Positions 5,227 to 25,862 of a stretch of 27,194 nt of DNA are shown in pieces. The first letter of the stretch is position 1, and the number at the start of each line of letters is the position of its first letter. The position numbers were made by a program, and so were the translations under genes. The DNA comes from a virus (lineage: Duplodnaviria; Caudoviricetes): positions 1 through 27,194 of the IMG/VR virus record IMGVR_UViG_3300020045_006965. One strand, given 5' to 3'. The notes under the pieces were generated by a model, which ran no database searches, was not told where the DNA came from, and saw only the letters and a list, made by a program, of their open reading frames with translations.

Positions 5227-5871
5227 ATGAAACTATTAAATCTATCCCATTTTCGACCGCAGTTTTTTTCTAAAATAACTAAATTTCTAAAAACATTTAT
5301 CCTAGGTGTTATTATTGGTGCTACCTTAGCTGGTGGTGTGATTCTAAATATCAGACATGAACAGAAAATCCAAGCTGAACAACTCCATCAACAACAAGTA
5401 GCTGCAGAAAAATTAGTCCAACTAAAAAATGAAGCAGCACTAGATACAACAGCAAATATTATCAAACGTGACGGTAAATTATCTCTAGCTACTGCAAAAA
5501 AATATGCCACTTGGATTTATGAAGCTGGATTAAAATATAATGTAGATCCTCTGCTCATTCTGTCTGTTATGTCAGTTGAATCAGGATTCAAACATAACGC
5601 TGTATCTCCTACTGGTCCAATCGGGTTGCTACAGATAGCGGCATCGTGGCATCGTGAAAAAACAACTAAAGCAGCGTTGTACAATCCACGGCATAATATC
5701 TATGTAGGTACTCAGATTCTTCGAGAATATGTTGATAGATCATCTTCTGAAAAGGAGGCATTATTGCGCTATAATGGTTCATTGGGTAAATCTTCGGTTT
5801 ATGCTGTAAAGGTTCTGTCGAAGAAAACTAGATACGAGTCAGAAATTCAAAATGCAGTGAGGGATATTTAA
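5227..5871 (+). CDS. SLT-family lytic transglycosylase with N-terminal membrane anchor
   Basis: VMSVESGF, GLLQI, NIYVGT..L, ALLRYNG motifs; hydrophobic FILGVIIGATLAGGVIL. Confidence 0.9.
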   Translation: MKLLNLSHFRPQFFSKITKFLKTFILGVIIGATLAGGVILNIRHEQKIQAEQLHQQQVAAEKLVQLKNEAALDTTANIIKRDGKLSLATAKKYATWIYEAGLKYNVDPLLILSVMSVESGFKHNAVSPTGPIGLLQIAASWHREKTTKAALYNPRHNIYVGTQILREYVDRSSSEKEALLRYNGSLGKSSVYAVKVLSKKTRYESEIQNAVRDI

Positions 5872-13110: not shown

Positions 13111-13213
13111 CTCGGATTCGTATAGTGGAAAATACAGAGGTCTTCTTTTATTCTTTCGAAATAGAGAATAAAAGAAGCCCCTAACGTCAGTTCGATTCTG
13201 GCATCCGAGACCA
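13111..13213 (+). tRNA. tRNA-Arg (UCG or UCU) with 28-nt hairpin insert in the anticodon
   Basis: Acceptor CTCGGAT/ATCCGAG, D stem GTAT/ATAC, T arm GTCAG-TTCGATT-CTGGC, A-CCA; 103 nt, or 75 nt without insert. Confidence 0.8.
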
Positions 13214-13214
13214 A

Positions 13215-13260
13215 ATTAATATTAAAATACTTTAACGATATAAAGTATTTTAATATTAAT
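13215..13260. repeat. 20-bp perfect inverted repeat ('empty' member of the ATATTRAA stem family)
   Basis: ATTAATATTAAAATACTTTA-ACGATA-TAAAGTATTTTAATATTAAT. Confidence 0.9.
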
Positions 13261-13552
13261 GAAAGATAATATTATGACAGAACAAAGTGAAACTACAATT
13301 GAACCTATCCCGGATTCACCAGAAGAAGTCCGTGTTACACCGAACGAAGAAGTGATAGATCTTATTGAATCACATCCTCAACAACAATCTCGCGCTTTCT
13401 GGTACAAGATTAAAACACTCACAGAAGAATTCCATCTCACGGTTATTGCCATTACTTCTACTGGTGCGCGAGAAGGTGTTGCTCAACAATTTCCTGGTGC
13501 AGCTGTTGCTTATCTAGGTGTAAGTGATAAAATTATGCAAGTTAACGGATAA
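13259..13552 (+). CDS. Hypothetical protein (start may be 13274)
   Basis: 97-aa ORF. Confidence 0.7.
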   Translation: MKDNIMTEQSETTIEPIPDSPEEVRVTPNEEVIDLIESHPQQQSRAFWYKIKTLTEEFHLTVIAITSTGAREGVAQQFPGAAVAYLGVSDKIMQVNG

Positions 13553-13573
13553 CTATGTTATAATTAATTCGAA

Positions 13574-13648
13574 TCCGCTGTAATTCAAAGGTTAGAATAA
13601 TCTCTTTATAAGGGATCTATCTGTGTTCGAGTCACAGCAGCGGTACCA
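13574..13648 (+). tRNA. tRNA-Ile (UAU)
   Basis: (T)CCGCTG/CAGCGG(T), ATTC/GAAT, ATCTC-TT TAT AA-GGGAT, CTGTG-TTCGAGT-CACAG, A-CCA; TGTTATAAT promoter ends at 13564. Confidence 0.85.
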
Positions 13649-13711
13649 AACACTGGTTAATATAGTGAACCACATTTTAAAAACTATCAATTCAATCTAA
13701 GGAAATTTATT

Positions 13712-13906
13712 ATGCACATCAAAATCCATCAAAAATTTACATCTCGCCGCACTGGTGATGTTATTAAAGTCACTAAAATTGAACGTTCTACTGTGAACTC
13801 TAAATGGGATCGTTACCTAATTTCCGATACAGATTCTTACGGTAAAGTTATTAAAGGAACTCAACGTTCTGTATTTTCAAATTCTATCCAACGTCGATAT
13901 CTATAA
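13712..13906 (+). CDS. Hypothetical basic protein
   Basis: AAGGA SD, 64 aa. Confidence 0.7.
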   Translation: MHIKIHQKFTSRRTGDVIKVTKIERSTVNSKWDRYLISDTDSYGKVIKGTQRSVFSNSIQRRYL

Positions 13907-13914
13907 TACTTTAA

Positions 13915-14271
13915 ATGAGATATGGGGTTATAGGCTCTCGCAGTTTTTTAGATTTCAATCTATTGAAAACTGTTCTGGATAAACATTTCATATCTCAAAT
14001 AATATCTGGTGGTGCTAGAGGTGCAGATTCTTTAGCTGCCAGATATGCAAAAGATAATAATATTTCATTGATAGAATATTTACCAGATTACACTAAATAT
14101 AAAAAGAAGGCACCGTTCATCAGAAATAAATTAATTGTTTCAAATTCTGATGTGATGATAGCTTTCTGGGATGGGATATCTACTGGAACTAAGCATTCTC
14201 TTGATTATGCTAAAAGTAAGAAGATCAAATCCATAATAATTAATTTTTCTGGAATCATTTCTATATATTAA
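13915..14271 (+). CDS. SLOG-family (DUF2493/YspA-like) protein
   Basis: VIGSR.F, ISGGARGAD, IRN..IV, AFWDG.S.GT motifs. Confidence 0.85.
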   Translation: MRYGVIGSRSFLDFNLLKTVLDKHFISQIISGGARGADSLAARYAKDNNISLIEYLPDYTKYKKKAPFIRNKLIVSNSDVMIAFWDGISTGTKHSLDYAKSKKIKSIIINFSGIISIY

Positions 14272-14279
14272 GGAATAAG

Positions 14280-14921
14280 ATGGCATCTATCAATATCGAA
14301 GATTTATTTGAAATAGAAACTCGCGAACCGAGTTCATCATTCATCAAGACAGCTAAATCAGAACTTTTTTCTCACCAAGTATTTTTTGACGAAGATATCG
14401 GGTCACCTGCTAAGTACAGGGATTTAATCAATCTTCTATATACATGTACAGACGATCATGAGTTTAATTTCTTTATGAATACTTCTGGTGGGGCAATGTC
14501 ATCTGCTATTGCTATTATCGAAGCAATTAAGGCAACAGATGGTAAAGTACGCGCGATTATTGTTGGGGAGTGTCATTCTGCCGGATCTATTATCGCTCTC
14601 AATTGTCATGAAATTGTTGTGTCTGATTCTGCTATGATGCTCTGTCATACAGCAAGTTATGGCACAGGTGGGAATACACATAATGTCAAGATTCATTCAG
14701 ATTTCTCATCGAAATATGTTAATAAACTTCTTGATGATACCTATACAGGGTTTGTATCTTCCTCAGAAATGATTGACCTAAAGAAGGGTATTGAAGTCTG
14801 GTTTGATTCTGAAGAAATTGGAAAACGATTAGAATCGCGTTTAAAGCATCAAACTGAAAAGGCTAGTGCTACCATTCAACCTAAAAAGAAACGCGGTAAA
14901 ACAGTTCCTGTGGCTTCCTAG
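14280..14921 (+). CDS. clpP: ClpP-like protease
   Basis: NTSGG, CHSAGS (catalytic Ser), MLCH (catalytic His). Confidence 0.8.
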   Translation: MASINIEDLFEIETREPSSSFIKTAKSELFSHQVFFDEDIGSPAKYRDLINLLYTCTDDHEFNFFMNTSGGAMSSAIAIIEAIKATDGKVRAIIVGECHSAGSIIALNCHEIVVSDSAMMLCHTASYGTGGNTHNVKIHSDFSSKYVNKLLDDTYTGFVSSSEMIDLKKGIEVWFDSEEIGKRLESRLKHQTEKASATIQPKKKRGKTVPVAS

Positions 14922-14931
14922 ACCTATTTAC

Positions 14932-14955
14932 AAGGTGTCTAATTGTAGATACCTT
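14932..14955 (+). terminator. 10-bp hairpin, possible terminator
   Basis: AAGGTGTCTA-ATTG-TAGATACCTT. Confidence 0.5.
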
Positions 14956-14968
14956 AATTGACTATATT

Positions 14969-16648
14969 ATGATTGATAAAATTGACCTTGAAAAACAAAT
15001 CCTAGTTGCATATGAAGAACTAGGATTTTCCCCTAGGGGAAACCAAACATCGATCTGTTACTCAGTTCTCGATGCCTTCCTAAATAAAGATAAAAAGAAT
15101 GTTTGTCTAGTTGCTGGCACGGGTATCGGAAAGTCGATTTTGGGTGCAGTTATCTCTAGAGTGATCGATCACTATACACCAGATGATTCGGCACTTGCAT
15201 CCATTATTACTATGGGTACAAATTCTTTGGCTCAACAGTATGCAGAATCATTCGATAAACTCGGTAAATATGAATTTTTCCAAGTAAAAGGTGCATCTAA
15301 TTATGCTTGTCCATTTATGGAATCTCAATTATCCGCAACAGTAAAAACTGCTGATGCTTGTGTCAAGAAAAATCTCATTCCACAAGAATCTGACAAGTAT
15401 TGTTCTAAGTGCGAATATGATGCATCAAAAAAAGTAATCAATTCTACAGCTAATCTGATTACTAATTACACATACTTTATGATTTCTGCTTTAGCATCGA
15501 ATCATTTAAAAGAGCGAAAATTAAACGTTTTTGATGAGGCCCATACTTTATCTGATTGGTTCTGCTCTTATGCTGAAATTCTAGTATCAGTTGAACTTAT
15601 TGACCGGTATATTAAAGAACTTGGTGATACAAACGGCAAATGTGATGATCAAATTGCGGGTCTTATCATGCTCAAACAAAAAGTATCATCAAATGAAGTA
15701 GGTGATGGTAATTATCTCCAATATCTACAAGTATTGCTACAACTATATAGATCTATCGCTTTTACACTAGCTAGTCAATCATCCGCTCTAAAATCTGTTG
15801 ATGTGGTGAAATCTGGTAAGTTCGATAAAATGGCATCTAAATATGATTCTCTTGCATCAAAGATATCTGATTTCTTTGAAAATGATTATGATCATGTATT
15901 TGATAATGCTATCCCAAATACTTTTACTATCAAAACCATTTTCATTGGTAAGATGATGGAAAAGTTACTTACAACATATAATTTATTCATGTCTGCCACT
16001 ATTACAGAGCAATATGCATTTGATGTTCTTGAATTAGATAGGGGCGCAACCGAATATATTTTACTTGACCCAGTATTTCCCCCAGAAAATAAACCATTAT
16101 TATTTTTAGGTACATCAGCTCTGAATTATAATTCTCTAAAAGATCCGGATATTATTGATAATATGAAAGACACTATCAAGAAGATTGTTGGATTCCATAA
16201 AGACCAAAAAGGTTTGATTATCTCACCATCATTTTATCTAGGATCACAGATGGTATATGGGTTGCGCGGAACTAAGGTGTTTGAACATAAATCTGGAGTT
16301 AATCTATCAGATCTAATCCTATCATTTAAATCATATAAAGGTTCTGCTGTCCTAGTATCACCTTCCATCTGGGAAGGATTGGATTTTTCTGGTGATGATT
16401 CTCGTTTTCAAGTGATCTTAAAATCACCTTATCCGGCTCTAGGAGATAAACGGCTTAAACATATTGCAGATAATTATCCTAGTATATACCAGGAGATGAC
16501 ATTACTCAAAATATTGCAAGGTATTGGGCGATCCATCAGAACTCCGGAAGATAGTGCTACGACGTACTTCCTCGACCCATCATCTAAAAAGTTGTATAAT
16601 AGTAAGTTAAATGTATGGAAAAATCATTACGACGTTAAAACACCATGA
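14969..16648 (+). CDS. DinG/XPD-like SF2 helicase
   Basis: AGTGIGKS, DEAH, MSAT, EGLDF, QGIGRSIR; Cys cluster after KG.SNY.C. Confidence 0.88.
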   Translation: MIDKIDLEKQILVAYEELGFSPRGNQTSICYSVLDAFLNKDKKNVCLVAGTGIGKSILGAVISRVIDHYTPDDSALASIITMGTNSLAQQYAESFDKLGKYEFFQVKGASNYACPFMESQLSATVKTADACVKKNLIPQESDKYCSKCEYDASKKVINSTANLITNYTYFMISALASNHLKERKLNVFDEAHTLSDWFCSYAEILVSVELIDRYIKELGDTNGKCDDQIAGLIMLKQKVSSNEVGDGNYLQYLQVLLQLYRSIAFTLASQSSALKSVDVVKSGKFDKMASKYDSLASKISDFFENDYDHVFDNAIPNTFTIKTIFIGKMMEKLLTTYNLFMSATITEQYAFDVLELDRGATEYILLDPVFPPENKPLLFLGTSALNYNSLKDPDIIDNMKDTIKKIVGFHKDQKGLIISPSFYLGSQMVYGLRGTKVFEHKSGVNLSDLILSFKSYKGSAVLVSPSIWEGLDFSGDDSRFQVILKSPYPALGDKRLKHIADNYPSIYQEMTLLKILQGIGRSIRTPEDSATTYFLDPSSKKLYNSKLNVWKNHYDVKTP

Positions 16649-16658
16649 AAGGAAATCT

Positions 16659-17030
16659 ATGAGTCAAGAACCATCACCATATCCATGCCCAACCGGGGTA
16701 GTACCGCGCCCTACAGTAGGTAGTATCCAGTTTGGTCCCATCACACCAAAAATTGATAATGCATATATCATAGATGGGATTGTCGCATCTATCAAAACTA
16801 AAGATAAAAAACATTCTCATTATTTCAAAGATGTGTCTCATCTAGACACAATTGATGTGTATCGTGTGCTTGATTTATTTCAAGTAACAGATCCAGCAAT
16901 CGCTCATGCTGCTAAGAAATTGCTAGTTGCTGGCGGTAGAGGTGCAGGTAAAGATATTAATAAAGATATAGCAGAAGCTATCGATACACTAATCCGGTGG
17001 CAAGCAATGAGGGCAGAGGATAATGTCTGA
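16659..17030 (+). CDS. Conserved phage protein
   Basis: IDVYRVL..F.VTDP...HA.KKLL.AG.RG..KD motif; AGGA SD before ATG 16659. Confidence 0.7.
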   Translation: MSQEPSPYPCPTGVVPRPTVGSIQFGPITPKIDNAYIIDGIVASIKTKDKKHSHYFKDVSHLDTIDVYRVLDLFQVTDPAIAHAAKKLLVAGGRGAGKDINKDIAEAIDTLIRWQAMRAEDNV

Positions 17031-17562
17031 TATTATCCTCGATCACCGGATGACCGATATTGAGGTTTTATCTGAAGAGACTAATGCTGTGATAGTGTCG
17101 ATAGCATGTGTGAAATTTTCTATGAAAACGTCATATACAGAATCATTCTGTGTTAATATTAACCCTGCTTCATCCAAAGCACTGGGTCTACATATTAGCA
17201 AAGATACTCTGAATTGGTGGAAGAAACAGAAACCAGAGGCATTAAAATCTTGGATGCATTCTAGAATTAATTTACCTGATGCATTGGATCAGTTTATAGA
17301 ATTCTGTGGTACATATAAGAATACTATCCATTGGGCGCAGGGTATTGCTTTTGATTTCCCTATTCTAGATTCATCATTAAAGGTGTGTGGAAAGACTCCA
17401 CCTTGGAAATATTGGAATGTCTATGATGCACGTACAGCTAATTATTTGGGTGCGGTAAATCCATTTGATGAGCCGCGAGTTGGTCAGTACCACTCCGCAT
17501 TAGATGATTGTTACACACAGATCCAGAATCTAAAGAAAGCAATAGGAATTACACATGAGTAA
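17023..17562 (+). CDS. DEDDh 3'-5' exonuclease (DexA-like)
   Basis: DIE, G..FDFPIL, D.RT, HSALDD. Confidence 0.85.
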   Translation: MSDIILDHRMTDIEVLSEETNAVIVSIACVKFSMKTSYTESFCVNINPASSKALGLHISKDTLNWWKKQKPEALKSWMHSRINLPDALDQFIEFCGTYKNTIHWAQGIAFDFPILDSSLKVCGKTPPWKYWNVYDARTANYLGAVNPFDEPRVGQYHSALDDCYTQIQNLKKAIGITHE

Positions 17563-17920
17563 TGGATTTTATGATAACTATGAGTACATCTTCAATATGA
17601 TTACTAAGAATGCTGCACAGTGTCTAGTATGTAACGATATCATCGAATCCAAACACCAGCACGACTATGTAACATGTTCATGTGGCGCAATATCTGTCGA
17701 TGGTGGTTTGGCTTATAAACGACGTTGTGCAAAAGACTTTGTTAATCTTAAAGAGTTATCTGAAAGTATAAAGTACACCGAAGATGAGTTGACATCATAT
17801 ATTCACAATGGTATCCGACAATCTATTACAGATAAGATCTATTCAAATAGTTTCCACGAAAATACAGTCGCGGCAGCAAAATATTTTCGGCAATTATGGT
17901 ATCCACATTATGAACCATAA
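17555..17920 (+). CDS. Zinc-binding conserved phage protein
   Basis: N.AQC..C.DIIES...HD...CSCG...VDGG. Confidence 0.75.
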   Translation: MSNGFYDNYEYIFNMITKNAAQCLVCNDIIESKHQHDYVTCSCGAISVDGGLAYKRRCAKDFVNLKELSESIKYTEDELTSYIHNGIRQSITDKIYSNSFHENTVAAAKYFRQLWYPHYEP

Positions 17921-17966
17921 TAAATAAGTGTTATAATCTAATTTTAACTATGAAAGAAGTGAACCT

Positions 17967-18632
17967 ATGAAAATCAGCAAAAGCACCATCGACATTCTAA
18001 AGAATTTTTCCAGTATTAATCAGAATATTCTGATCAAAGAGGGTTCTGTTGTGACTTCACGTACTGTTGCCAAGAATCTTTTTGTATCCGCAACAGTTGA
18101 CACTGTATTTGACCAAGAATTTGGTATCTACAATCTTAACCAATTTTTAGGTGTTCTATCATTATTTTCAGATCCTGATCTAGAATTCACTGATAAAGCA
18201 GTTACTATTTCTCAAGGTAAGAATAAAGTTCAATATTTGTTTGCTTCACCAGAAGTTCTTGATTATCCTGAAAAGGCAATTAATATGCCACCGGTAGATG
18301 CAGAGTTTGAACTTACAGAGGAAAATCTTAAGAGTTTATTGAAAGCAGGTGCTGTTTTATCATCGACTGATCTTCGTATCTCTGGCGATGGTGAAACAAT
18401 TGTTTGCACAACTATGGACCCAAAAAATCCAGCATCAAATACTTTCTCAGTAGAGGTAGGTGTAACTGATCGTACTTTCGATGCATACATTAAATTGGAA
18501 ACTCTCAAGTTGATCTCTGGATCATATAAGGTTTCTCTGTCTGCAAAGAAGATCACTAAGTTTGAGAACACTACTATCGATTACAATTTATATATCGCAA
18601 ATACATCCGACAGTTCATGGACAAGCGTCTAA
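17967..18632 (+). CDS. 45: DNA polymerase sliding clamp (T4 gp45-like)
   Basis: MKISK.T..ILKNFSSIN..I, FGIYNLNQFL, Y.VSLS. Confidence 0.93.
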   Translation: MKISKSTIDILKNFSSINQNILIKEGSVVTSRTVAKNLFVSATVDTVFDQEFGIYNLNQFLGVLSLFSDPDLEFTDKAVTISQGKNKVQYLFASPEVLDYPEKAINMPPVDAEFELTEENLKSLLKAGAVLSSTDLRISGDGETIVCTTMDPKNPASNTFSVEVGVTDRTFDAYIKLETLKLISGSYKVSLSAKKITKFENTTIDYNLYIANTSDSSWTSV

Positions 18633-18634
18633 AC

Positions 18635-18675
18635 TGTGTTATAATTAATCATCTTAATAATTAAAGGAACATATT
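18635..18675 (+). promoter_or_regulatory. Promoter-leader-SD cassette, copy 4
   Basis: TGTGTTATAATTAATCATC...AAAGGAA. Confidence 0.7.
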
Positions 18676-18825
18676 ATGAAACCAACAGCCAACTTCCGGA
18701 TGAATTCTACCACCAAGTACTTGCTATCTACGATCACAGATCCAGAAGCGCGTAATGCGTTCAAATCGAACATGATCCAAGCGCAACTTGCAAGTGAGAT
18801 TAAGCCGGTTAAAGAGAAGAAATAA
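18676..18825 (+). CDS. Small basic protein (49 aa), not in ORF track
   Basis: MKPTANFRMNSTTKYLLSTITDPEARNAFKSNMIQAQLASEIKPVKEKK with AGGA SD and own promoter. Confidence 0.75.
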   Translation: MKPTANFRMNSTTKYLLSTITDPEARNAFKSNMIQAQLASEIKPVKEKK

Positions 18826-18829
18826 TCAG

Positions 18830-18940
18830 TAATATCCGAATCCTCTGCCTGTTGAAAGATACAACGCATGATATCTAGAATTTACTAGTGAAACCTATGG
18901 ACGCATAGGTCTACGGAAATCTCGTCTGTGATAAGCAGAC
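18830..18940 (+). ncRNA. Run of three hairpins, candidate structured RNA
   Basis: ATATC..TGC..GTTG/CAAC-GCA-GATAT; ACCTATG-GACG-CATAGGT; GTCTG-TGATAAG-CAGAC. Confidence 0.45.
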
Positions 18941-18942
18941 AT

Positions 18943-19052
18943 CATATTAAAACATACTGTTTAACTGTTAGGTGACACGAATCAGCGAACTATATTAAAT
19001 TGTAGCAGGTTGATGTCATAGGTTCGAGTCCTGTACAGTATGTTTTAATATG
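18943..19052 (+). ncRNA. tRNA-like RNA enclosed in an 18-bp perfect stem
   Basis: CATATTAAAACATACTGT/ACAGTATGTTTTAATATG; T arm ATAGG-TTCGAGT-CCTGT abuts the 3' arm. Confidence 0.7.
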
Positions 19053-19091
19053 GTAAGTTAAAAGGAATGTGGGCAGTACCATAGCAATGAC

Positions 19092-19224
19092 CATATTGAA
19101 GCACTTTTGTGGGGTAAACAATGAGGGCAGAGTAGTTCCTTGCTCATGTTATCAACGGCATGAATAGGATAAGACGCTGAGCGACCTGATTTTATTCTGT
19201 ATGTAAAGAAAGTGCTTCAATATG
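19092..19224 (+). ncRNA. Structured RNA enclosed in a 16-bp perfect stem
   Basis: CATATTGAAGCACTTT/AAAGTGCTTCAATATG; inner stems GCAGAGTAG/TTATTCTGT and TCATGTT/GGCATGA with G-U pairs. Confidence 0.65.
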
Positions 19225-19533
19225 ACTAATGTAAATATTATGACAAACGAAACTACTCCACGTAAAATTCTATCTCTCAAGAAAAAACCTGTTGAGGTTA
19301 TTGATCCTCAGATCGTAAAATCACAACCTAATATTGTCAAGATTAATGGTCCTCTTAAACAGCGATTAGAGGTTCATGCCAAGGCAACTTCTGATCTGAA
19401 GAAGACAAAACATCCAATTCGAATCGCTTGTCTTGTAAAGATGTTGATTCGATTGAATGTCGCAATTGCTAAAATCAATAGTCTCACGGTCAGTTACGAT
19501 GAATCTGGTAAACAAATATTGACACCTGTATGA
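19222..19533 (+). CDS. Hypothetical basic protein (start may be 19240)
   Basis: 103-aa ORF, ATGA-coupled to next gene. Confidence 0.7.
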   Translation: MTNVNIMTNETTPRKILSLKKKPVEVIDPQIVKSQPNIVKINGPLKQRLEVHAKATSDLKKTKHPIRIACLVKMLIRLNVAIAKINSLTVSYDESGKQILTPV

Positions 19534-19787
19534 TTACTGATATAAATCCAGAATTCAGTGAACTAGCAATGACGCTGGGTAAATTTCTCCATATCTCTGA
19601 GAAATTATCCATATTGTGGGGTTCTAAAGAATGTAGAGCATATCTACATTCACTTACGTTAACTGATAGACCAAATAGAATAGGTTTCCCATTTGATGCT
19701 ATAGTAGCGATCTCTTCACTGACCGATTTGCATGATAAGTCGTTTCCAGAATTTAAGCCAAAGCATTCTGTCTGGGACGTGTTGTAA
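19530..19787 (+). CDS. Hypothetical protein
   Basis: LWGS.EC..YL..L...DR..R.GFP motif. Confidence 0.75.
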   Translation: MITDINPEFSELAMTLGKFLHISEKLSILWGSKECRAYLHSLTLTDRPNRIGFPFDAIVAISSLTDLHDKSFPEFKPKHSVWDVL

Positions 19788-19812
19788 ACTAGATATGTGA
19801 TATAATGTAAAC

Positions 19813-19982
19813 ATGACACCAACATTTAGACAAGAAGAAACTAAGATGGGATATGCCGTTATTACGGCAGATCACTTGGCGCATGGACAATCTTTAAGGA
19901 AGGTAAAGATATCGAATATATTCCATCAGAGATATTCGATACTACACCTGAAGAAGTATTGATAAAGACTTATTTGAACTAA
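19813..19982 (+). pseudogene. Small gene with probable 1-nt frameshift near 19843
   Basis: MTPTFRQEETK in one frame; DGICRYYGRSLGAW...KTYLN* in the -1 frame, ending in a TAATG overlap with the next gene. Confidence 0.4.
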
Positions 19983-20563
19983 TGACTATACTATTAAAAC
20001 TAATCAAACCTATCGAACGTCTAGATAAATTTTTGACAAAAACTAAAACTAGAATTTTGTCATCTGTATTTCTATTGACGGGTGGTTATAGATGCACTCT
20101 TTGCGGTTCTAATCATTTACATTTCAAGTATCCACAGTATACAGGGTGGGTAAACAACGTAAATGGTACCACTACTAGGATGTTACTGTCATGGTCAATG
20201 TTAGATAATATTGTATGCCCATTATGTGCAATAGACGAAATCAAGACATATTTCCTAAATTACAATCCATATGACAAAGATGTTCCCCATTATGGGACAT
20301 GTGATTATACTGGTAAGACTGGTGTTCTAGTTTGTCCTATCATTTGGGGTAGACGCGGTGGATTCAGTCTCCGACATGGTAGAGAATGGTGGAACGGATT
20401 TGTTGCATCTGAAGAAGCTTTGATAGAAGCTATTCGTTCTTCTGTAATTTCATCATCCGTCAGCGAATACAATGATGGTAAAATATTATACGCATCTGGT
20501 AAATACAAGGTACCATTGCAGACATTTAGTGAATGGATGAATAAACAATCATGGTACAATTGA
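19982..20563 (+). CDS. Hypothetical Cys-rich protein
   Basis: CTLC, CPLC. Confidence 0.7.
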   Translation: MTILLKLIKPIERLDKFLTKTKTRILSSVFLLTGGYRCTLCGSNHLHFKYPQYTGWVNNVNGTTTRMLLSWSMLDNIVCPLCAIDEIKTYFLNYNPYDKDVPHYGTCDYTGKTGVLVCPIIWGRRGGFSLRHGREWWNGFVASEEALIEAIRSSVISSSVSEYNDGKILYASGKYKVPLQTFSEWMNKQSWYN

Positions 20564-20697
20564 TTTTAATTATTACTTGGATAGCTGGGGTAGTTATTGC
20601 TAAAGGATTCTGGTCTACATTTATTGCATTCTGTTTTCCTTTCTGGGCATGGTATCTAGTAGTAGAATTAATTTTACATAGATTCTCTATTGTATAA
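20551..20697 (+). CDS. Small membrane protein (48 aa), not in ORF track
   Basis: MVQLILIITWIAGVVIAKGFWSTFIAFCFPFWAWYLVVELIL. Confidence 0.7.
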   Translation: MVQLILIITWIAGVVIAKGFWSTFIAFCFPFWAWYLVVELILHRFSIV

Positions 20698-20724
20698 ACC
20701 GTGATGTGATTCAATTATTAATTT

Positions 20725-21126
20725 ATGACGCGAATAAACTCTAATTTAAATCCTAAATCTCTAAAACGAATGCATCTTATTGCTGAACTTAGAGAAATTA
20801 CAATGGTTCCAGCTGCACTTCGGAGATCCCTTCGTTCAAAAAGTAAAGAAGAAGTCCTTTTATCCATACCCAAGAAATTTACTTTAAATTCTGGTCATGT
20901 AAAATTTTTCTACGATAAATTTGAATTTCTTCAATATCGTTTTATTGCACTTGCAGAAGAAATGAAACATCGTGGATATATTCCAGATGAGAGTAGAATT
21001 GAAGCATTCTCGGGATTTGATAACGTATTTTATAATGACTGGTCTTCTACTAAAGAAGATGATGCAATTATTATTGAGCGCATACAACTCCGTATTTCTG
21101 AAAAACCACACCTTTATAAAGATTAA
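20725..21126 (+). CDS. denV: Endonuclease V, pyrimidine dimer glycosylase
   Basis: MTRIN N-terminus, HLIAELREI, F.L..GHV.FFYDK, RI.EKP..Y. Confidence 0.93.
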   Translation: MTRINSNLNPKSLKRMHLIAELREITMVPAALRRSLRSKSKEEVLLSIPKKFTLNSGHVKFFYDKFEFLQYRFIALAEEMKHRGYIPDESRIEAFSGFDNVFYNDWSSTKEDDAIIIERIQLRISEKPHLYKD

Positions 21127-21128
21127 TC

Positions 21129-22067
21129 ATGAGCCAATTTGAAAATTTAGTTTGGGAACAACGGTATCGCCCGCATTTAGTTGCAGATACAATTCTTCCA
21201 GATACAACAAAAAAGATGATCCATGATATTATCAAGTCCGGTAATACTCCCAATTTTCTGTTTGAAGGTGGTCCAGGAACTGGAAAGACTACTCTTGCCA
21301 GAGCAATTGCCGAAGAACTTGGTGCAGACTTGTTGTTTATCAACGCATCGATTGATGGTTCTATTGATACACTTAGAACAACAATTACACAATTTGTCAC
21401 AACTGTATCATTTACTGATTCAAAGAAAATTGTTCTATTGGATGAAGCTGATTACCTTTCGATTGTTACCCAACCGGCACTACGTGGGTATATGGATGAA
21501 TTTTCTAAGAATGCAATTTTTATTCTAACATGTAATTATAAGCATAGGATTATTGCGCCATTATTATCTCGGCTCCAAGTAATTGAGTTTAAATTCTCTA
21601 AAGAAGAGAAACAACCAGCTGCTATGCAGATGCTAAAGCGCTGCTGCCAGATTCTCGATACAGAACAAGTTAAATATGACAAGAAAGCCGTTGCTGCTGT
21701 AGTATCTAAGAACTTTCCAGATTTTCGTAAAACTCTAGTAGAACTTCAGCGATATTCTACATCTGGAGAGATTGATTCCGGTATCGTTGCAGCATCTGAT
21801 ACATCTGATATGAGTGATCTATTCAAAGCAGTTAAGGGTAAAGATTTTACCGCATGTCGTAAATGGGTCGCAAATAATTCTCTTGATTCTGCAACGTTTT
21901 ATCGTGGTTTATATGATCGATTGCTTCCTGAATTGGTTCCTCAGACTATCCCACAAGTTATTCTACATATTAATGACTTTCAGTATCAAGCAACAAGTTC
22001 AGTTGATCTAGAAATTAATCAGATGGCGTTTTTAGTTAATCTGATGGGTTCTGCGAGTTTTAAATAA
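21129..22067 (+). CDS. 44: Clamp loader large subunit (T4 gp44-like)
   Basis: WEQRYRP, GPGTGKTT, LDEAD, FILTCN, LLSR, FPDFRK. Confidence 0.95.
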   Translation: MSQFENLVWEQRYRPHLVADTILPDTTKKMIHDIIKSGNTPNFLFEGGPGTGKTTLARAIAEELGADLLFINASIDGSIDTLRTTITQFVTTVSFTDSKKIVLLDEADYLSIVTQPALRGYMDEFSKNAIFILTCNYKHRIIAPLLSRLQVIEFKFSKEEKQPAAMQMLKRCCQILDTEQVKYDKKAVAAVVSKNFPDFRKTLVELQRYSTSGEIDSGIVAASDTSDMSDLFKAVKGKDFTACRKWVANNSLDSATFYRGLYDRLLPELVPQTIPQVILHINDFQYQATSSVDLEINQMAFLVNLMGSASFK

Positions 22068-22453
22068 TGGTTTCTCCATTCGACATCACAAAGAGTCTGA
22101 CACAGACAAAGGATGATTTATATACTACTGAAGAAGTATTCAACAAAGAATACAATTCGTTTATGATCAACCGTATCTTATCAAACTCTCAATCAACTGT
22201 TCTTTTTGCCAATATGATGAACTCTGGACTTCTGGATAAAAAACTCCAATACGATTTCTATCGATTTGGAATTCCTAAGTCGAGGGGTTATACCAAATAT
22301 ATAAAGAAAGATGATTCTACGTTCAATCAAGATCATTTAGAATATATCTCGGAATCAATGAATGTATCACTTAAACGTGCAATTGAAATTTATGGGTTGA
22401 TTGGATCTGATGTGGTACAGGCTGAATTAGATAAACGAGGTGGAAAGAAATGA
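22067..22453 (+). CDS. 62: Clamp loader small subunit (T4 gp62-like)
   Basis: Y.SFMINR.LS, AN.MN, LQYDF; follows gene 44. Confidence 0.88.
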   Translation: MVSPFDITKSLTQTKDDLYTTEEVFNKEYNSFMINRILSNSQSTVLFANMMNSGLLDKKLQYDFYRFGIPKSRGYTKYIKKDDSTFNQDHLEYISESMNVSLKRAIEIYGLIGSDVVQAELDKRGGKK

Positions 22454-22773
22454 CGATTAAACTTTATATCGCTGTTCTCGATGAGTTTCCAGATTACATG
22501 GCCCCTACATTAGTTGCCCACTCTGTTCTAGGCGCACATTTACAGTTTTGTGATGACTGTGTCTATAATGAGTGGTTAATGAACTCATTTAAGAAATGTG
22601 TCATTCGTGTTAATAAGAAAGAATTTGATAAGATTTCAGTTATTCCTGACGTTTATCTAGGACATGAAAATAATACCTTAAATGGTAGAAAATCTTGTGC
22701 GATTCCTGTTCCTGTATATAAAGATTTACCAAATGTTCTAAAATTTGCAAAATTATGGTCACCTAATCCATAG
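22450..22773 (+). CDS. Peptidyl-tRNA hydrolase 2 (Pth2)-like protein
   Basis: LYIAV..., VAH, W...SFKK.V..V pattern. Confidence 0.55.
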   Translation: MTIKLYIAVLDEFPDYMAPTLVAHSVLGAHLQFCDDCVYNEWLMNSFKKCVIRVNKKEFDKISVIPDVYLGHENNTLNGRKSCAIPVPVYKDLPNVLKFAKLWSPNP

Positions 22774-22809
22774 TTAAATAGTTCCATATAAACTTTATAA
22801 TGTGTTATA

Positions 22810-23211
22810 ATGGAACTAGAACAAAAATTTGCATATGGTGTTGAGGTATTATTACCTACTCCGGATTCTTTCAATATTCTTCGTGAATCATTGACTCGTA
22901 TTGGGGTTGCTTCTAAAAAGAGCAAGACTCTATACCAAAGCTCCCATGTTTTGCATAAACGAGGTAGGTATTTTATTTTGCATTTCCTTGAACTATTCCG
23001 ACTGGACGGACGGACTGCTGATATTTCTGAAGATGATTATAGACGTAGAAATACCATTGCAAAGTTAGTTTCTCAGTGGGGAATCTGCAAGTTGGTATAT
23101 AATGAAGATATCGAATTTACTGTTCCAGTATCAGAGATCAAGATCATTCCATACAAGGAAAAGAAAGATTGGGTATTGGTTAGTAAGTACACTGTAGGTG
23201 GTAGAAAATAA
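22810..23211 (+). CDS. regA: Translational repressor RegA
   Basis: F..LRESLTRIGVAS, LYQS.H.LHKRG.Y.I.HF.ELF.LDG, RRNTIA.L. Confidence 0.95.
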   Translation: MELEQKFAYGVEVLLPTPDSFNILRESLTRIGVASKKSKTLYQSSHVLHKRGRYFILHFLELFRLDGRTADISEDDYRRRNTIAKLVSQWGICKLVYNEDIEFTVPVSEIKIIPYKEKKDWVLVSKYTVGGRK

Positions 23212-23226
23212 TTATGAAAGAATATT

Positions 23227-23448
23227 ATGAATGAAAAGATTACTCCTTTGTTGAACTCTATGGAGACGCGAATGGTGGGTTCACGTTTTCGTGTCAAGTT
23301 GTCCATTATGGATAATGGTGTTCATCCAAAGTCAATTATGTGCGCAACTCAAGATTTGGTAAGCAAAGGATTTTCATTGAAGTTTTTTAAGACAGAAGAA
23401 GATGCAACTGATTTTATTAAAGTTTTGGCTACATTGGTAAAAAGCTAA
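23227..23448 (+). CDS. Hypothetical protein
   Basis: 73-aa ORF following regA. Confidence 0.7.
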   Translation: MNEKITPLLNSMETRMVGSRFRVKLSIMDNGVHPKSIMCATQDLVSKGFSLKFFKTEEDATDFIKVLATLVKS

Positions 23449-23452
23449 TATC

Positions 23453-23492
23453 TGTGTTATAATTAATCAACTAAATTCAAATGGAGATTAAA
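23453..23492 (+). promoter_or_regulatory. Promoter-leader-SD cassette, copy 5
   Basis: TGTGTTATAATTAATCAACTAAATTCAAATGGAG. Confidence 0.72.
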
Positions 23493-23786
23493 ATGACTAA
23501 GCGATTAATTAAAAAAGAAATTGATACTATGTATTTTGGTGGTGGTACTGCCGAAGATACGATCAAGGAATTGCAAGCACTCATTGATGAACATGGTGCT
23601 GGTAATATTACACTTGATACAAGTTCGAGTTATGGTAGTGACGACAGTTACGTTGCGGTTTTGCTGAGTCGTCTTGAAACTGATGAAGAAGAGTACGTCA
23701 GAGAATATGCTGCTGCACGCCAAAAAATTCGTAATGATGAATACGAGCGTGTTCAATATGAATCATTGAAGAAAAAATTCGGATAA
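23493..23786 (+). CDS. Hypothetical protein
   Basis: GGAG SD before ATG 23493; R.ETDEE and YE.LK.KFG tail. Confidence 0.75.
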   Translation: MTKRLIKKEIDTMYFGGGTAEDTIKELQALIDEHGAGNITLDTSSSYGSDDSYVAVLLSRLETDEEEYVREYAAARQKIRNDEYERVQYESLKKKFG

Positions 23787-23807
23787 ATAGGATATAAGGA
23801 AAATAAT

Positions 23808-23963
23808 ATGAATGCTTTTAGTGTAGATGTTCAAAAAGTGCCGGGTGGTTTTATCATCAGTTGTCCTGATGGTATCCGCGTAGAAACTGATTTGGTTACA
23901 GTTTTACAGATTGTTCAAAAAGAACTATCACGTGAGTTGGTCAGCGTAATCAGTACTGTATAA
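23808..23963 (+). CDS. Small hypothetical protein (51 aa), not in ORF track
   Basis: AAGGA SD; MNAFSVDVQKVPGGFII. Confidence 0.65.
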   Translation: MNAFSVDVQKVPGGFIISCPDGIRVETDLVTVLQIVQKELSRELVSVISTV

Positions 23964-23964
23964 T

Positions 23965-24069
23965 ATGAATAAATTAGAAGAAGGTTGGGGTTTAGGTAAA
24001 ATGGAAGGTGATGGATACGCCATCGAAGGTTCTGGTTATGCAAGTGACTTGAATCCAATTTCCATTTGA
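23965..24069 (+). CDS. Possible 34-aa peptide
   Basis: ATG 1 nt after upstream stop; MNKLEEGWGLGKMEGDGYAIEGSGY. Confidence 0.35.
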   Translation: MNKLEEGWGLGKMEGDGYAIEGSGYASDLNPISI

Positions 24070-24085
24070 AGAATAAATAAGATAC

Positions 24086-24203
24086 GGACGATTGGGTGAG
24101 TGGTTGAAACCGAGGGACTGATACGGAACATCTGTTAAAACGGGTGTTCAAATAAATCCCTTCCTTAAAAAGCACGCAGGTTCAAATCCTGCTCCGTCCA
24201 CCA
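24086..24203 (+). tRNA. tRNA-Tyr (GUA) with 32-nt hairpin insert in the anticodon
   Basis: GGACG/CGTCC acceptor (2 inner mismatches), GGT/ACC D stem, AGGGA/TCCCT, long variable region, GCAGG-TTCAAAT-CCTGC, A-CCA. Confidence 0.75.
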
Positions 24204-24249
24204 AGAATTAGTCGGAGTAATTAACCGAGATAGTAAATGTAGATCATCT

Positions 24250-24337
24250 TGCTGATATGGTGATCCTTGTTGTGTATACAACGTCTGAATAAAATCAGAA
24301 GAAAATACGGGGTAAAAATCCTCACGAAATATCAGCA
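24250..24337 (+). ncRNA. Cloverleaf-like structured element
   Basis: TGCTGATAT/ATATCAGCA closing GTTGT/ACAAC, TCTGA/TCAGA and GGGG-TAAAAAT-CCTC. Confidence 0.5.
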
Positions 24338-25014
24338 CTCATTATTGCGGGTAGTGTAGCCAACAATCCAGTGCATGCAATTTTATTCTTCAATTCTATA
24401 AATGCAGATTCTGGTGAATAATATCTATCTTCATATATTTCTACTATCCATCCCATTTTTTGAAATTCTTTAATTTTAATAGAATCTCTATTTTGGACTT
24501 GTTTTAAAGAATGATTTTTGAACCCCATTTCTCTATAATGCCACGGTCCATTCCATAATATTGCAATTTTATAATCGTGCAGAAGAATATCGGCATCCCA
24601 ACCATTAGCTATAGATGTATCATTACTAGTAACATTAATGAAATGATCAACACATAAATCAAAAAGTTTAATTTCATCTTTAGATCTTTTATTTTGTATT
24701 GCTGCTGATGATTTACCGCCTTTTCGACTACCTTCGGTCATCAATTTTCTTCTACAGTCGGGAGTGCAGGATTTTCTTTTGGTATATGAAAGAAAATAAT
24801 TATTACAGCAAGTACATGTAAATTCTTTCAATAATTTCTCTTTAAATAATTTCTCTTTCTTTGGTTTATTCTTTAATGTATTACTTCTTTTTAAATTAGT
24901 CTCAATTGAATGAGTTCTAGAATTGGCACAATTTCTAGAACAATAAATACCTTCTTTGAAATGTAAATTAAAACATTTTAAACAAAATTTTTCTTGTGGG
25001 ATTTTAATTTTCAT
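24322..25014 (-). CDS. Vsr/DUF559-like putative homing endonuclease with Cys-rich zinc repeats
   Basis: YCSRNCAN, CTCC...SCTPDC, RS..E..L, DADI...KIAI.WNG.WHY, RD..K...GW. Confidence 0.75.
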   Translation of the reverse strand: MKIKIPQEKFCLKCFNLHFKEGIYCSRNCANSRTHSIETNLKRSNTLKNKPKKEKLFKEKLLKEFTCTCCNNYFLSYTKRKSCTPDCRRKLMTEGSRKGGKSSAAIQNKRSKDEIKLFDLCVDHFINVTSNDTSIANGWDADILLHDYKIAILWNGPWHYREMGFKNHSLKQVQNRDSIKIKEFQKMGWIVEIYEDRYYSPESAFIELKNKIACTGLLATLPAIMSADIS

Positions 25015-25029
25015 GATAATTGTCTCCGA

Positions 25030-25107
25030 TAAATAACAATGAAGGACAGCACAGGTATCCGTACTGTGTTTCCAAGAACTTCAATTTCTTGGATTACTTC
25101 TTATTTA
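25030..25107. promoter_or_regulatory. Two-hairpin leader between convergent TAAATA motifs
   Basis: + TAAATA 25030-25035, - TAAATA 25102-25107; GCACAG/CTGTGT and TCCAAGAA/TTCTTGGA. Confidence 0.55.
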
Positions 25108-25163
25108 ATATAAATGAAATTTCATTAATAAATATGTTATAATTGAACTTTAGTGTATAAAGT

Positions 25164-25236
25164 TCTGGATTAGTTCAGTTGGCAGAATGCATCATTTGTA
25201 ACGATGAGGTCGCTGGTTCGATTCCAGCATCCAGAA
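25164..25236 (+). tRNA. tRNA-Thr (UGU)-like, no encoded CCA, acceptor stem extended to 20 bp (25151-25248)
   Basis: TCTGGAT/ATCCAGA, GTTC/GAAT, CATCA-TT TGT AA-CGATG, GCTGG-TTCGATT-CCAGC. Confidence 0.8.
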
Positions 25237-25250
25237 CTTTATATATTATC

Positions 25251-25327
25251 GCGGGTGTAGCTCAGTTTGGTAGAGCTTCTGATTTCCAATCAGGATGTCA
25301 CAGGTTCGAGTCCTGTCACCCGCTCCA
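25251..25327 (+). tRNA. tRNA-Gly (UCC)
   Basis: Canonical cloverleaf GCGGGTG/CACCCGC, TT TCC AA loop, U73, CCA. Confidence 0.95.
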
Positions 25328-25354
25328 TTTTGTTATTAACTAGAAAGTGAATCT

Positions 25355-25609
25355 ATGATCTATTCCCCACTAAACGATTACATTATCGTAAAAAAACAAG
25401 CTGCCGCAAATGCAACTTCATCAGGTATTATCCTTACATCTACATCAGGTTCTGATACGGCAAAAGTAGTTGCCATGTCTGCTGACATTCCTGCTACAAC
25501 TGCATTAGAGATTGATGATCTAATTATGATTCGATGGTCAAATGCATTGAAAATCGATGGTGATGTTTATGCAGTTTCAATCAAAGAAGTAGTTACGAAA
25601 CTGGAATAG
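25355..25609 (+). CDS. groES: GroES-like co-chaperonin
   Basis: PLNDYIIV...TSSGIIL mobile-loop motif. Confidence 0.85.
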   Translation: MIYSPLNDYIIVKKQAAANATSSGIILTSTSGSDTAKVVAMSADIPATTALEIDDLIMIRWSNALKIDGDVYAVSIKEVVTKLE

Positions 25610-25621
25610 CGTGTATAATGA

Positions 25622-25862
25622 AATGTGAAGTTGTGATTCACTACGAGTATCGGCAAATAATCCGATTCGATCCTGCGGACTCTATACTGTGTGAAATAGC
25701 GGGTTGGTTTAAATGTACCGGCAATAGGCTCTCACTGCAAACGTCAGGGCAGTAAACAGGGATCACATCCTGTACAATATGGTTTGTTGTAGTAACTACC
25801 GGAATGTTCCGCCCGGCAACAAAAATTCTTCTGGATGGTAAGATTAATCCAACAACTACATT
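25622..25862 (+). ncRNA. Unrecognised ~240-nt structured RNA
   Basis: TATAAT 25614-25619; ends pair (AATGT..AGTTGT / ACAACT-ACATT); at least five internal stems; visibly GC-richer than flanks. Confidence 0.6.

Follow-up and report, generated by a model that had tools for sequence, protein, structure and literature searches.

Split and enclosed tRNA genes of a T4-like phage fragment as predicted substrates of host RNase III

The 27,194-nt DNA stretch of the IMG/VR virus record IMGVR_UViG_3300020045_006965 (Caudoviricetes; hereafter the window) carries, between positions 13,111 and 25,862, seven non-coding elements that an earlier note described as one dispersed set of RNAs unable to work as ordinary tRNAs as transcribed. 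Judged from sequence, several of the odd tRNA genes among them are probably precursors that would be cut by host RNase III and finished by a phage Rnl-type ligase and a CCA-adding enzyme, a reading to which we assign a probability of about 0.65. The seven elements are not of one kind: two are tRNAs split by a hairpin insert (13111 and 24086), one is a tRNA enclosed by an extension of its acceptor stem (25151), two are stem-closed RNAs (18943 and 19092) and two are weak cases. Five of the seven are real and well supported; the weak ones are 24250 and the closing stem of 25622.

The two design rules proposed for the set apply to part of it. The anticodon arm is lengthened in 13111 and 24086. The description fits 18943 only loosely: a T-arm is present there, but neither a D-arm nor an anticodon loop can be recognised. 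Long terminal stems close 18943 (18 bp), 19092 (16 bp) and 25151 (15 bp), and are weak in 24250 (9 bp) and in 25622, where the region 25622-25862 folds no better than its shuffles (z +0.91). Perfect inverted repeats of at least 15 bp within 300 nt number four in the window, whereas 50 shuffles average 0.02.

The window is a 27-kb fragment of a T4-like phage, 15% complete, with genes for the clamp, clamp loader, RegA, DsbA and polymerase; its own record (G000) holds the window only and no further genome of this phage. The closest record, G003, is syntenic with protein identities of 83-85%, and a second close record, G001, is complete at 192 kb with a clamp identity of 67%. The same designs recur on other tRNAs of G003, where an intact tRNA-Arg(UCU) sits in a 13-bp extension and a tRNA-Met is both split at 34/35 and enclosed. 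G003 also has further stem-closed RNAs, among them an 88% homolog of 19092, and RNA clusters with related closing stems are found in G001 and in the unrelated Curvibacter phage P26059A (84 kb). An Rfam search of the window, L054 of G003, L126 of G001 and L143 of P26059A returned only tRNAs above the cut-off.

Enclosed tRNAs

Element 25151 (25151-25248; all features lie on the + strand unless marked) is a tRNA-Thr(UGU) at 25164-25236, recognised by fold and by Rfam, with a 13-bp acceptor extension, no encoded CCA and a G-2:C74 pair. The perfect closing stem, 25156-25243, spans 15 bp, or 20 bp when G·U pairs are counted. The missing CCA and the G-2:C74 pair shared by the first three examples suggested a 2-nt 3' overhang, and the overhang predicted for the Thr gene is A73-C74. 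The distal box of its stem consists of A25152-U25247 and G25153·U25246, and the best register under the full RNase III matrix is a cut at +1. In E. coli, the distal box of RNase III is a U-A plus a U·G pair (UA/UG) and one box set is enough to fix the cut (accessible part of PMC1540722), and the in vivo matrix has a G 11 nt before the cut (PMC6212723, Table S4). Taken together, the distal-box G at -11 and this matrix would place the cuts before +1 and after C74. RNase III of E. coli requires about 11 bp of helix to one side of the cut or to both, and this is matched by the 13-bp extension of the Thr gene and by 10 bp inside the Arg insert described below.

The pattern used to search for enclosed tRNAs fixed only positions -5 to -1 and 73 to 77, leaving -11 and -12 outside it, and returned 120 loci. 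A custom tRNA finder run over the collected loci yielded 472 unique tRNA-like genes, 384 of them with a 7-nt loop; the extension measured 0-2 bp in 332, 3-8 bp in six, which were left out, and 10-16 bp, peaking at 13-14 bp, in the remaining 46, which we refer to as enclosed. The controls were the 329 of the 332 non-extended tRNAs with enough flank. Among the enclosed tRNAs, A-12 and G-11 are each present in 40 of 46 and both together (AG) in 36, against 15 of the 329 controls, and none encodes CCA, against 154 controls. The pair at -11 is G·U in 30 of the 46 and G-C in ten, and G·U is found in at most five of the 46 at any other position. The enclosed set is redundant, with 25 CAU anticodons, and AG is kept in 23 of 31, 16 of 24 and 10 of 15 clusters at 80%, 70% and 65% identity, respectively. 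Eight bystanders that had not been chosen by the pattern all carry G-2:C74 and A or U at 75, and five of them carry AG. When only the outer half of the in vivo matrix from E. coli is applied, +1 is the top-scoring register in 39 of the 46 enclosed tRNAs and in seven of the eight bystanders. In Aeromonas phage PX29, AG occurs at -12/-11 in three of 25 annotated tRNAs, and all three are enclosed.

We consider it likely, from these features, that the enclosed tRNA of the window is a precursor cut by RNase III at its mature ends. By binding the A-U/G·U box at -12/-11 of the 13-bp leader-trailer helix, RNase III would set one cut ahead of +1 and another behind C74. The 5' end would thereby be mature and carry a phosphate with no need for RNase P, and N73-C74 would form an overhang. 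Only C and A would then have to be added, presumably by a CCA-adding enzyme.

The split tRNA-Arg and its insert family

Element 13111 (13111-13213) is a tRNA-Arg(UCU) gene with A20 and an encoded CCA; it forms a complete cloverleaf whose anticodon arm contains a 15-bp hairpin (z -5.2). A 28-nt insert at 13147-13174 splits the gene at 36/37; its excision restores an Arg(UCU) loop, and the best match of the excised form among intact tRNAs is Arg(UCU), to which it aligns in both G001 and phage phiAS5. In the precursor fold, the insert joins the anticodon loop into one continuous helix. C35 and U36 are paired with the final two bases of the insert, the first insert base pairs with the third-last in the 2-nt stagger of RNase III, and all five junction pairs fit a 2-nt 3' overhang. 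The distal box lies within the insert (U13155·G13164 and U13156-A13163).

A generic split-tRNA pattern scan, returning 120 loci from 12 of the 64 parts of the collection, led to PX29 and then to further carriers. The same Arg insert is present in the cultured Aeromonas phages PX29, Ah1 and Aeh1 and in AsFcp_2 and phiWae14, and is absent exactly from the Arg(UCU) gene of phiAS5. The six scored copies (the window, PX29, Ah1, Aeh1, phiWae14 and L206) all have C-G at i7, U·G at i9 and U-A at i10; i3 is A-U or U-A, and the remaining pairs of i1-i6 and i8 vary. Between copies the insert shows covarying pairs on either side of its unchanging distal box, and even divergent carriers keep the exon stems paired. 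The Arg genes of the Aeromonas phages are enclosed as well and have AG at -12/-11, and none of the other annotated tRNAs of PX29 is a tRNA-Arg. Annotations can be corrected accordingly, the split Arg gene being labelled tRNA-Glu in Aeh1 and tRNA-Lys in PX29. As a separate observation, PX29 has a second long tRNA-like gene (L399 1778-1894) with a different insert, annotated as a joined tRNA-Leu.

On this pattern of pairing and conservation, 13111 is probably spliced after the predicted RNase III cuts. The enzyme would make one cut behind U36 and another ahead of A37; a phage ligase of the Rnl1 or Rnl2 type could directly seal the resulting 3'-OH and 5'-P ends.

Other split tRNAs and the tRNA-Tyr gene

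To 21 hand-picked phage-type cases among 83 insert-bearing candidates we count 24086, giving 22 split tRNAs; 52 others, many of them apparently giant-virus 37/38 introns, served as controls (39 after crude de-duplication), and ten were not used. Where frames tied, in four cases, 35/36 was chosen by hand. Pairing with a 2-nt stagger is found in 12 of the 22 split tRNAs, against 8 of 84 wrong frames and 5 of 39 controls. Counted from the 3' splice site, AG stands at -12/-11 in 8 of 22 (background 0.083, p 2.5e-4), against 2 of 39 controls. About half of the split tRNAs fit the RNase III geometry, and the rest constitute further families. One other family, at 35/36 (L209, L217, L222, L224 and L254), consists of one G, a helix and a 5-nt 3' tail, with no RNase III stagger. 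Pairing between the opening bases of the intron and of exon 2 is seen in 24086 and in the tRNA-Met of G003; by eye it does not hold generally, and it was dropped as a rule.

Element 24086 (24086-24203) is a tRNA-Tyr(GUA) gene, classed as tRNA by Rfam (39.2 bits), and has an encoded CCA and two acceptor-stem mismatches. A 32-nt hairpin insert (24121-24152; z -2.65) splits it at 34/35, and excision gives the same loop as in the tRNA-Tyr of 7t3, to which the excised form is 70% identical, against 51% for the 7t3 tRNA-Ser; the syntenic tRNA of G003 is also Tyr(GUA). The "tRNA-Tyr" annotated in 7t3 at 117 nt was set aside, being an intact tRNA whose annotation is over-long. A close homolog of the insert occupies the same 34/35 site of a tRNA-Asn (L216), with one stem pair changed from G-C to A-U, which suggests that the insert moves between tRNAs. 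A pattern scan for inserts of the Tyr type gave nine matches, none in a split tRNA. The Tyr insert has U·G at -11 and lacks the stagger (two of five pairs), and is probably a mobile mini-intron of another family with a different cutter. Whether 24086 itself is spliced is, on the sequence, an even call.

Enzymes

We searched 23 phage records, comprising 15 with split tRNAs, seven with enclosed tRNAs, and G001. Rnl1 was found in 13, the Rnl2 family in 12, RtcB in one and RNase III in none. The ends left by RNase III are 5'-P and 3'-OH and thus suit Rnl ligases, not RtcB. The occurrence of the distal-box pair at an exact distance from the ends, together with the absence of RNase III from the 23 records, points to host RNase III as the cutter. 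The earlier suggestion of masked pro-tRNAs matured by a phage cut-and-ligate pathway is thereby retained for 13111 and 25151 in all but the cutter, which is most likely host RNase III instead of a phage enzyme. A CCA enzyme was detected in 7 of the 13 large records searched, PX29 among them, and not in G001. The latter has an Rnl2 gene about 3.5 kb before its RNA cassette and tRNA cluster, where the tRNA finder saw no split or enclosed tRNA.

The assertion that no candidate processing enzyme is recognisable in the window is not quite right, as 17023-17562 encodes a DEDDh-type 3'-5' exonuclease (Rv2179c-like; PF16473, E 4.8e-34) with a putative trimming role. The product of 22450-22773, called Pth2-like in the earlier note, is a probable Pth2-like protein by ESM Atlas feature search (0.95 to PTH2 clusters, 38-70% of members), with no Pfam (PF01981) or PDB match.

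Weighing the readings

Several observations weigh against cutting by host RNase III with ligase and CCA-enzyme finishing. The rules of RNase III used here are those of E. coli and may not be those of the host. Under the full matrix, neither the Thr stem of the window (p 0.59) nor the Arg helix (p 0.67) scores above pair-shuffled stems, and the best Arg register is tied with another. The count of 39 enclosed tRNAs with +1 as top register is inflated, 38 of the 46 having been chosen for UUUGU/ACAAA. For the tRNA-Met of G003, both enclosed and split, the best register lies 3 nt before +1. AG is absent from ten of the 46 enclosed and 14 of the 22 split tRNAs, and ten of the latter, 24086 included, fail the stagger. 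No ligase is encoded in the window's own 15% fragment. Rnl1 is present in six of seven near-complete records with split tRNAs, in agreement with the model; given how widespread the ligase is in large phages at large (10 of 13 near-complete records), its presence is not diagnostic.

It is unlikely that RNase III cuts as predicted and the Arg halves then stay unjoined, the products being nicked tRNAs, or halves that regulate or serve as decoys. In 23S rRNA, RNase III is known to excise hairpins, the intervening sequences, with no ligation afterwards (accessible part of PMC8708148), and Rnl1 was not found in 7 of the 15 split-tRNA records, six of these seven being less than 90% complete. However, the predicted cuts leave an exact 7-nt loop whose anticodon matches the tRNA body, PX29 would be left without any annotated tRNA-Arg, and the proposal does not apply to enclosed tRNAs. 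It is improbable, too, that the cutter is not classical RNase III but a phage nuclease that escaped recognition, or a different host enzyme, reading a similar helix and cutting at the same places. The several insert families with other geometries, 24086 and L216 among them, need another cutter, and many proteins of the window have no family. Against this stand the agreement of the conserved pairs with the E. coli distal box, both in identity and in their spacing from +1 and from the splice site as independent anchors, as well as the occurrence of such stems in unrelated phages such as P26059A.

RNAs acting unprocessed, as decoys of anticodon nucleases or double-stranded RNA sponges for RNase III, appear quite improbable. 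RNase III would bind to long helices that hold an optimal box, and 18943, 19092 and 25622 cannot become tRNAs. A sponge, however, would require neither a set spacing to +1 nor an invariant G-2:C74 nor a tRNA body that is intact, and the Arg insert buries the very anticodon loop that such nucleases read. The decoy role suggested in the earlier note finds no positive evidence: inserts excise to canonical tRNAs, one relative lacks the Arg insert exactly, and PX29 has no second annotated tRNA-Arg. The remaining alternative, that the inserts are gene-killing DNA insertions and the terminal stems incidental, with RNase P and exonucleases maturing the enclosed tRNAs as usual, is very improbable. Breakage does happen at this locus, as tRNA stubs beside homing-endonuclease-like genes attest, and the acceptor-stem mismatches of 24086 are in keeping with decay. 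Yet exon stems are maintained across divergent insert-bearing copies, insert pairs covary around the invariant box, RNase P is hindered by a paired leader (accessible part of PMC7897497), and the conservation at -12/-11 would be left unexplained.

Relation to known systems

In the tRNA cluster of T4, RNase III makes coarse cuts that are followed by RNase P. T4 also uses Pnk and Rnl1 to repair PrrC-cut tRNA-Lys. The likeness of the latter to the route predicted here lies in a phage ligase sealing the anticodon loop, and the difference in damage repair with end-healing as opposed to a programmed excision that would leave ligatable ends. Introns of archaeal and eukaryal tRNAs lie in a bulge-helix-bulge or at the 37/38 site and are cut by EndA/TSEN, and group I introns have a catalytic core of at least 200 nt. 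An intron of the archaeal or eukaryal type was rejected: the sites are 36/37 and 34/35, and the Arg precursor forms a continuous helix without bulge-helix-bulge (EndA/TSEN were not searched). The Arg insert family resembles group I introns in having U before the 5' site and G at its end and in interrupting the anticodon loop; the Lys and Glu members instead have A as their last base, which pairs with position 35 of the same tRNA. A group I intron was likewise rejected, the inserts being 28 and 32 nt long with no Rfam match and no catalytic core.

Host RNase III takes part in maturing the tRNA transcripts of T4 (accessible part of PMC4810235), and the likeness extends to the stable non-tRNA RNAs (species 1/2, rnaC and rnaD) among the tRNAs of T4. 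Here, in contrast, cuts are predicted at the mature ends, and no stem of at least 13 bp was found in the T4 cluster. In rRNA, long helices also enclose a stable RNA and hairpin inserts are excised by RNase III (same part of PMC8708148); the 16S cuts, however, leave long extra ends and the intervening sequences leave fragmented rRNA, whereas mature ends and religation are predicted here. The tRNA introns of Lak megaphages lie in the anticodon loop, are present or absent between relatives, and have an unknown mechanism (accessible part of PMC6784885). Most of those listed there are inserts of about 80-150 nt, with at least one possible nested tRNA, as against the single hairpins of 26-35 nt seen here; by eye against the accessible Table S6, the present inserts are not of the Lak type (long insert, 5' hairpin, possible nested tRNA).

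The predicted RNase III/ligase route is found in no paper covered by our literature search: neither RNase III making mature tRNA ends nor RNase III splicing tRNA was found, in a search leaving out most subscription journals and the T4 papers of the 1970s and 1980s. Neither is described in the accessible parts of PMC10690425, PMC1524935 and PMC3491384; the Aeh1 table in the accessible part of PMC1524935 has no Arg(UCU), and the main text of PMC7162821 does not mention introns. The wider proposal, that large phages use a separate tRNA-making pathway based on host RNase III, with RNase P-free 5' ends, a novel class of hairpin introns spliced with a phage ligase, and timing by that ligase, stands in our estimate at slightly better than even odds. 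If true, it would constitute tRNA splicing without a ribozyme or an archaeal/eukaryal endonuclease and a natural RNase P-independent formation of tRNA 5' ends in bacteria, and some phage tRNAs would appear only once the ligase is made. It also proposes, in a form open to test, how some of the phage tRNA introns that lack an explanation work, and what phage Rnl ligases may do routinely; a gain for the phage is something we infer. Both designs are present in cultured phages.

Stem-closed RNAs and other features of the window

The stem-closed RNA 18943 (18941-19054) has a perfect closing stem at 18943-19052, of the CAU family, with a C-G/U-A box at stem positions 15/16. P26059A has a similar layout at L143 3468-3583. 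BLASTN of 18930-19240 and of the G001 cassettes against cultured phages gave chance matches only, and a scan for the T-arm plus stem motif gave five matches, none enclosed. In 19092 (19092-19224; perfect closing stem), 4 of 17 stem pairs differ from the G003 homolog on both sides and none is broken; the RNase III matrix score has p 0.027 against shuffled stems. There was no Rfam match to 19092, and a pattern scan for its core found G003 only. Two runs of DNA contigs gave short pieces only and carry no weight as evidence here; one low-depth contig skips 19230-19544, most of the open reading frame after 19092, and G003 also lacks that frame. In G003, the 19092 homolog is directly followed by a gene of tRNA shape (L054 11664-11853) whose insert measures about 114 nt. 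A bare 20-bp hairpin with the stem motif of 18943 and 19092 (13215-13260; z -8.75) stands directly after the Arg gene of the window; it is one of the four perfect inverted repeats and does not figure in the earlier note.

Among 20 cassette stems of the CAU family, a box-like pair lies at position 15 in eight, including 18943, at 13 in four, including 19092 and 13215, and at 14 or 16 in two; the six without a box and the split of the others between registers 13 and 15 add to the points raised above against RNase III. Over 26 stems, the matrix scores against pair-shuffles give a combined p of 4e-7 and a median p of 0.13, the copies not being independent. It is plausible from these stems that RNase III would release 18943, 19092 and 13215 from a long transcript, in an uncertain register.

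Element 24250 (24250-24337) is a weak multi-hairpin structure (z -3.0, with 2 of 200 shuffles as good), and no homolog was found in the relatives searched. The conserved part of 25622 is an RNA core at about 25643-25752 only, with a homolog in P26059A (E 1e-5) whose hairpins are changed; a pattern scan for this core returned one record, which matches P26059A. A Y RNA (YrlA)/Ro60 system, with a permuted tRNA-like domain and a Ro60 gene, was rejected: the YrlA match in the window reaches 27.6 bits against a cut-off of 69 and spans two adjacent tRNAs, and TROVE was not found in G000-G003. G001 has full-length, sub-threshold YrlA matches at L126 10349-10463 (31 bits) and 5405-5517 (29 bits). A promoter scan of the window gave 73 matches, against 72 by chance, and a metagenome scan found one short distant contig on which no element was seen.

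Two intact tRNAs with encoded CCA were identified by sequence and Rfam, tRNA-Ile(UAU) at 13574-13648, with U·U at 1-72, and tRNA-Gly(UCC) at 25251-25327. The UAU anticodon of tRNA-Ile is uncommon among bacteria; the gene is present in G003 too. A homing-endonuclease-like open reading frame (24322-25014, - strand; phrog_3339, E 1e-4) overlies a 5' tRNA stub (24347-24369) that resembles a CAU tRNA of G001, and G003 has two such reading frames adjoining tRNA stubs. An identical 27-nt stretch and a hairpin mark the start of both reverse-strand endonuclease genes (25023-25070 of the window and L054 4138-4185). Just upstream of the DsbA gene, a possible H-type pseudoknot at 25823-25851 has two copies in G003 (L054 18905 and 19140), with the second stem changed on both sides.

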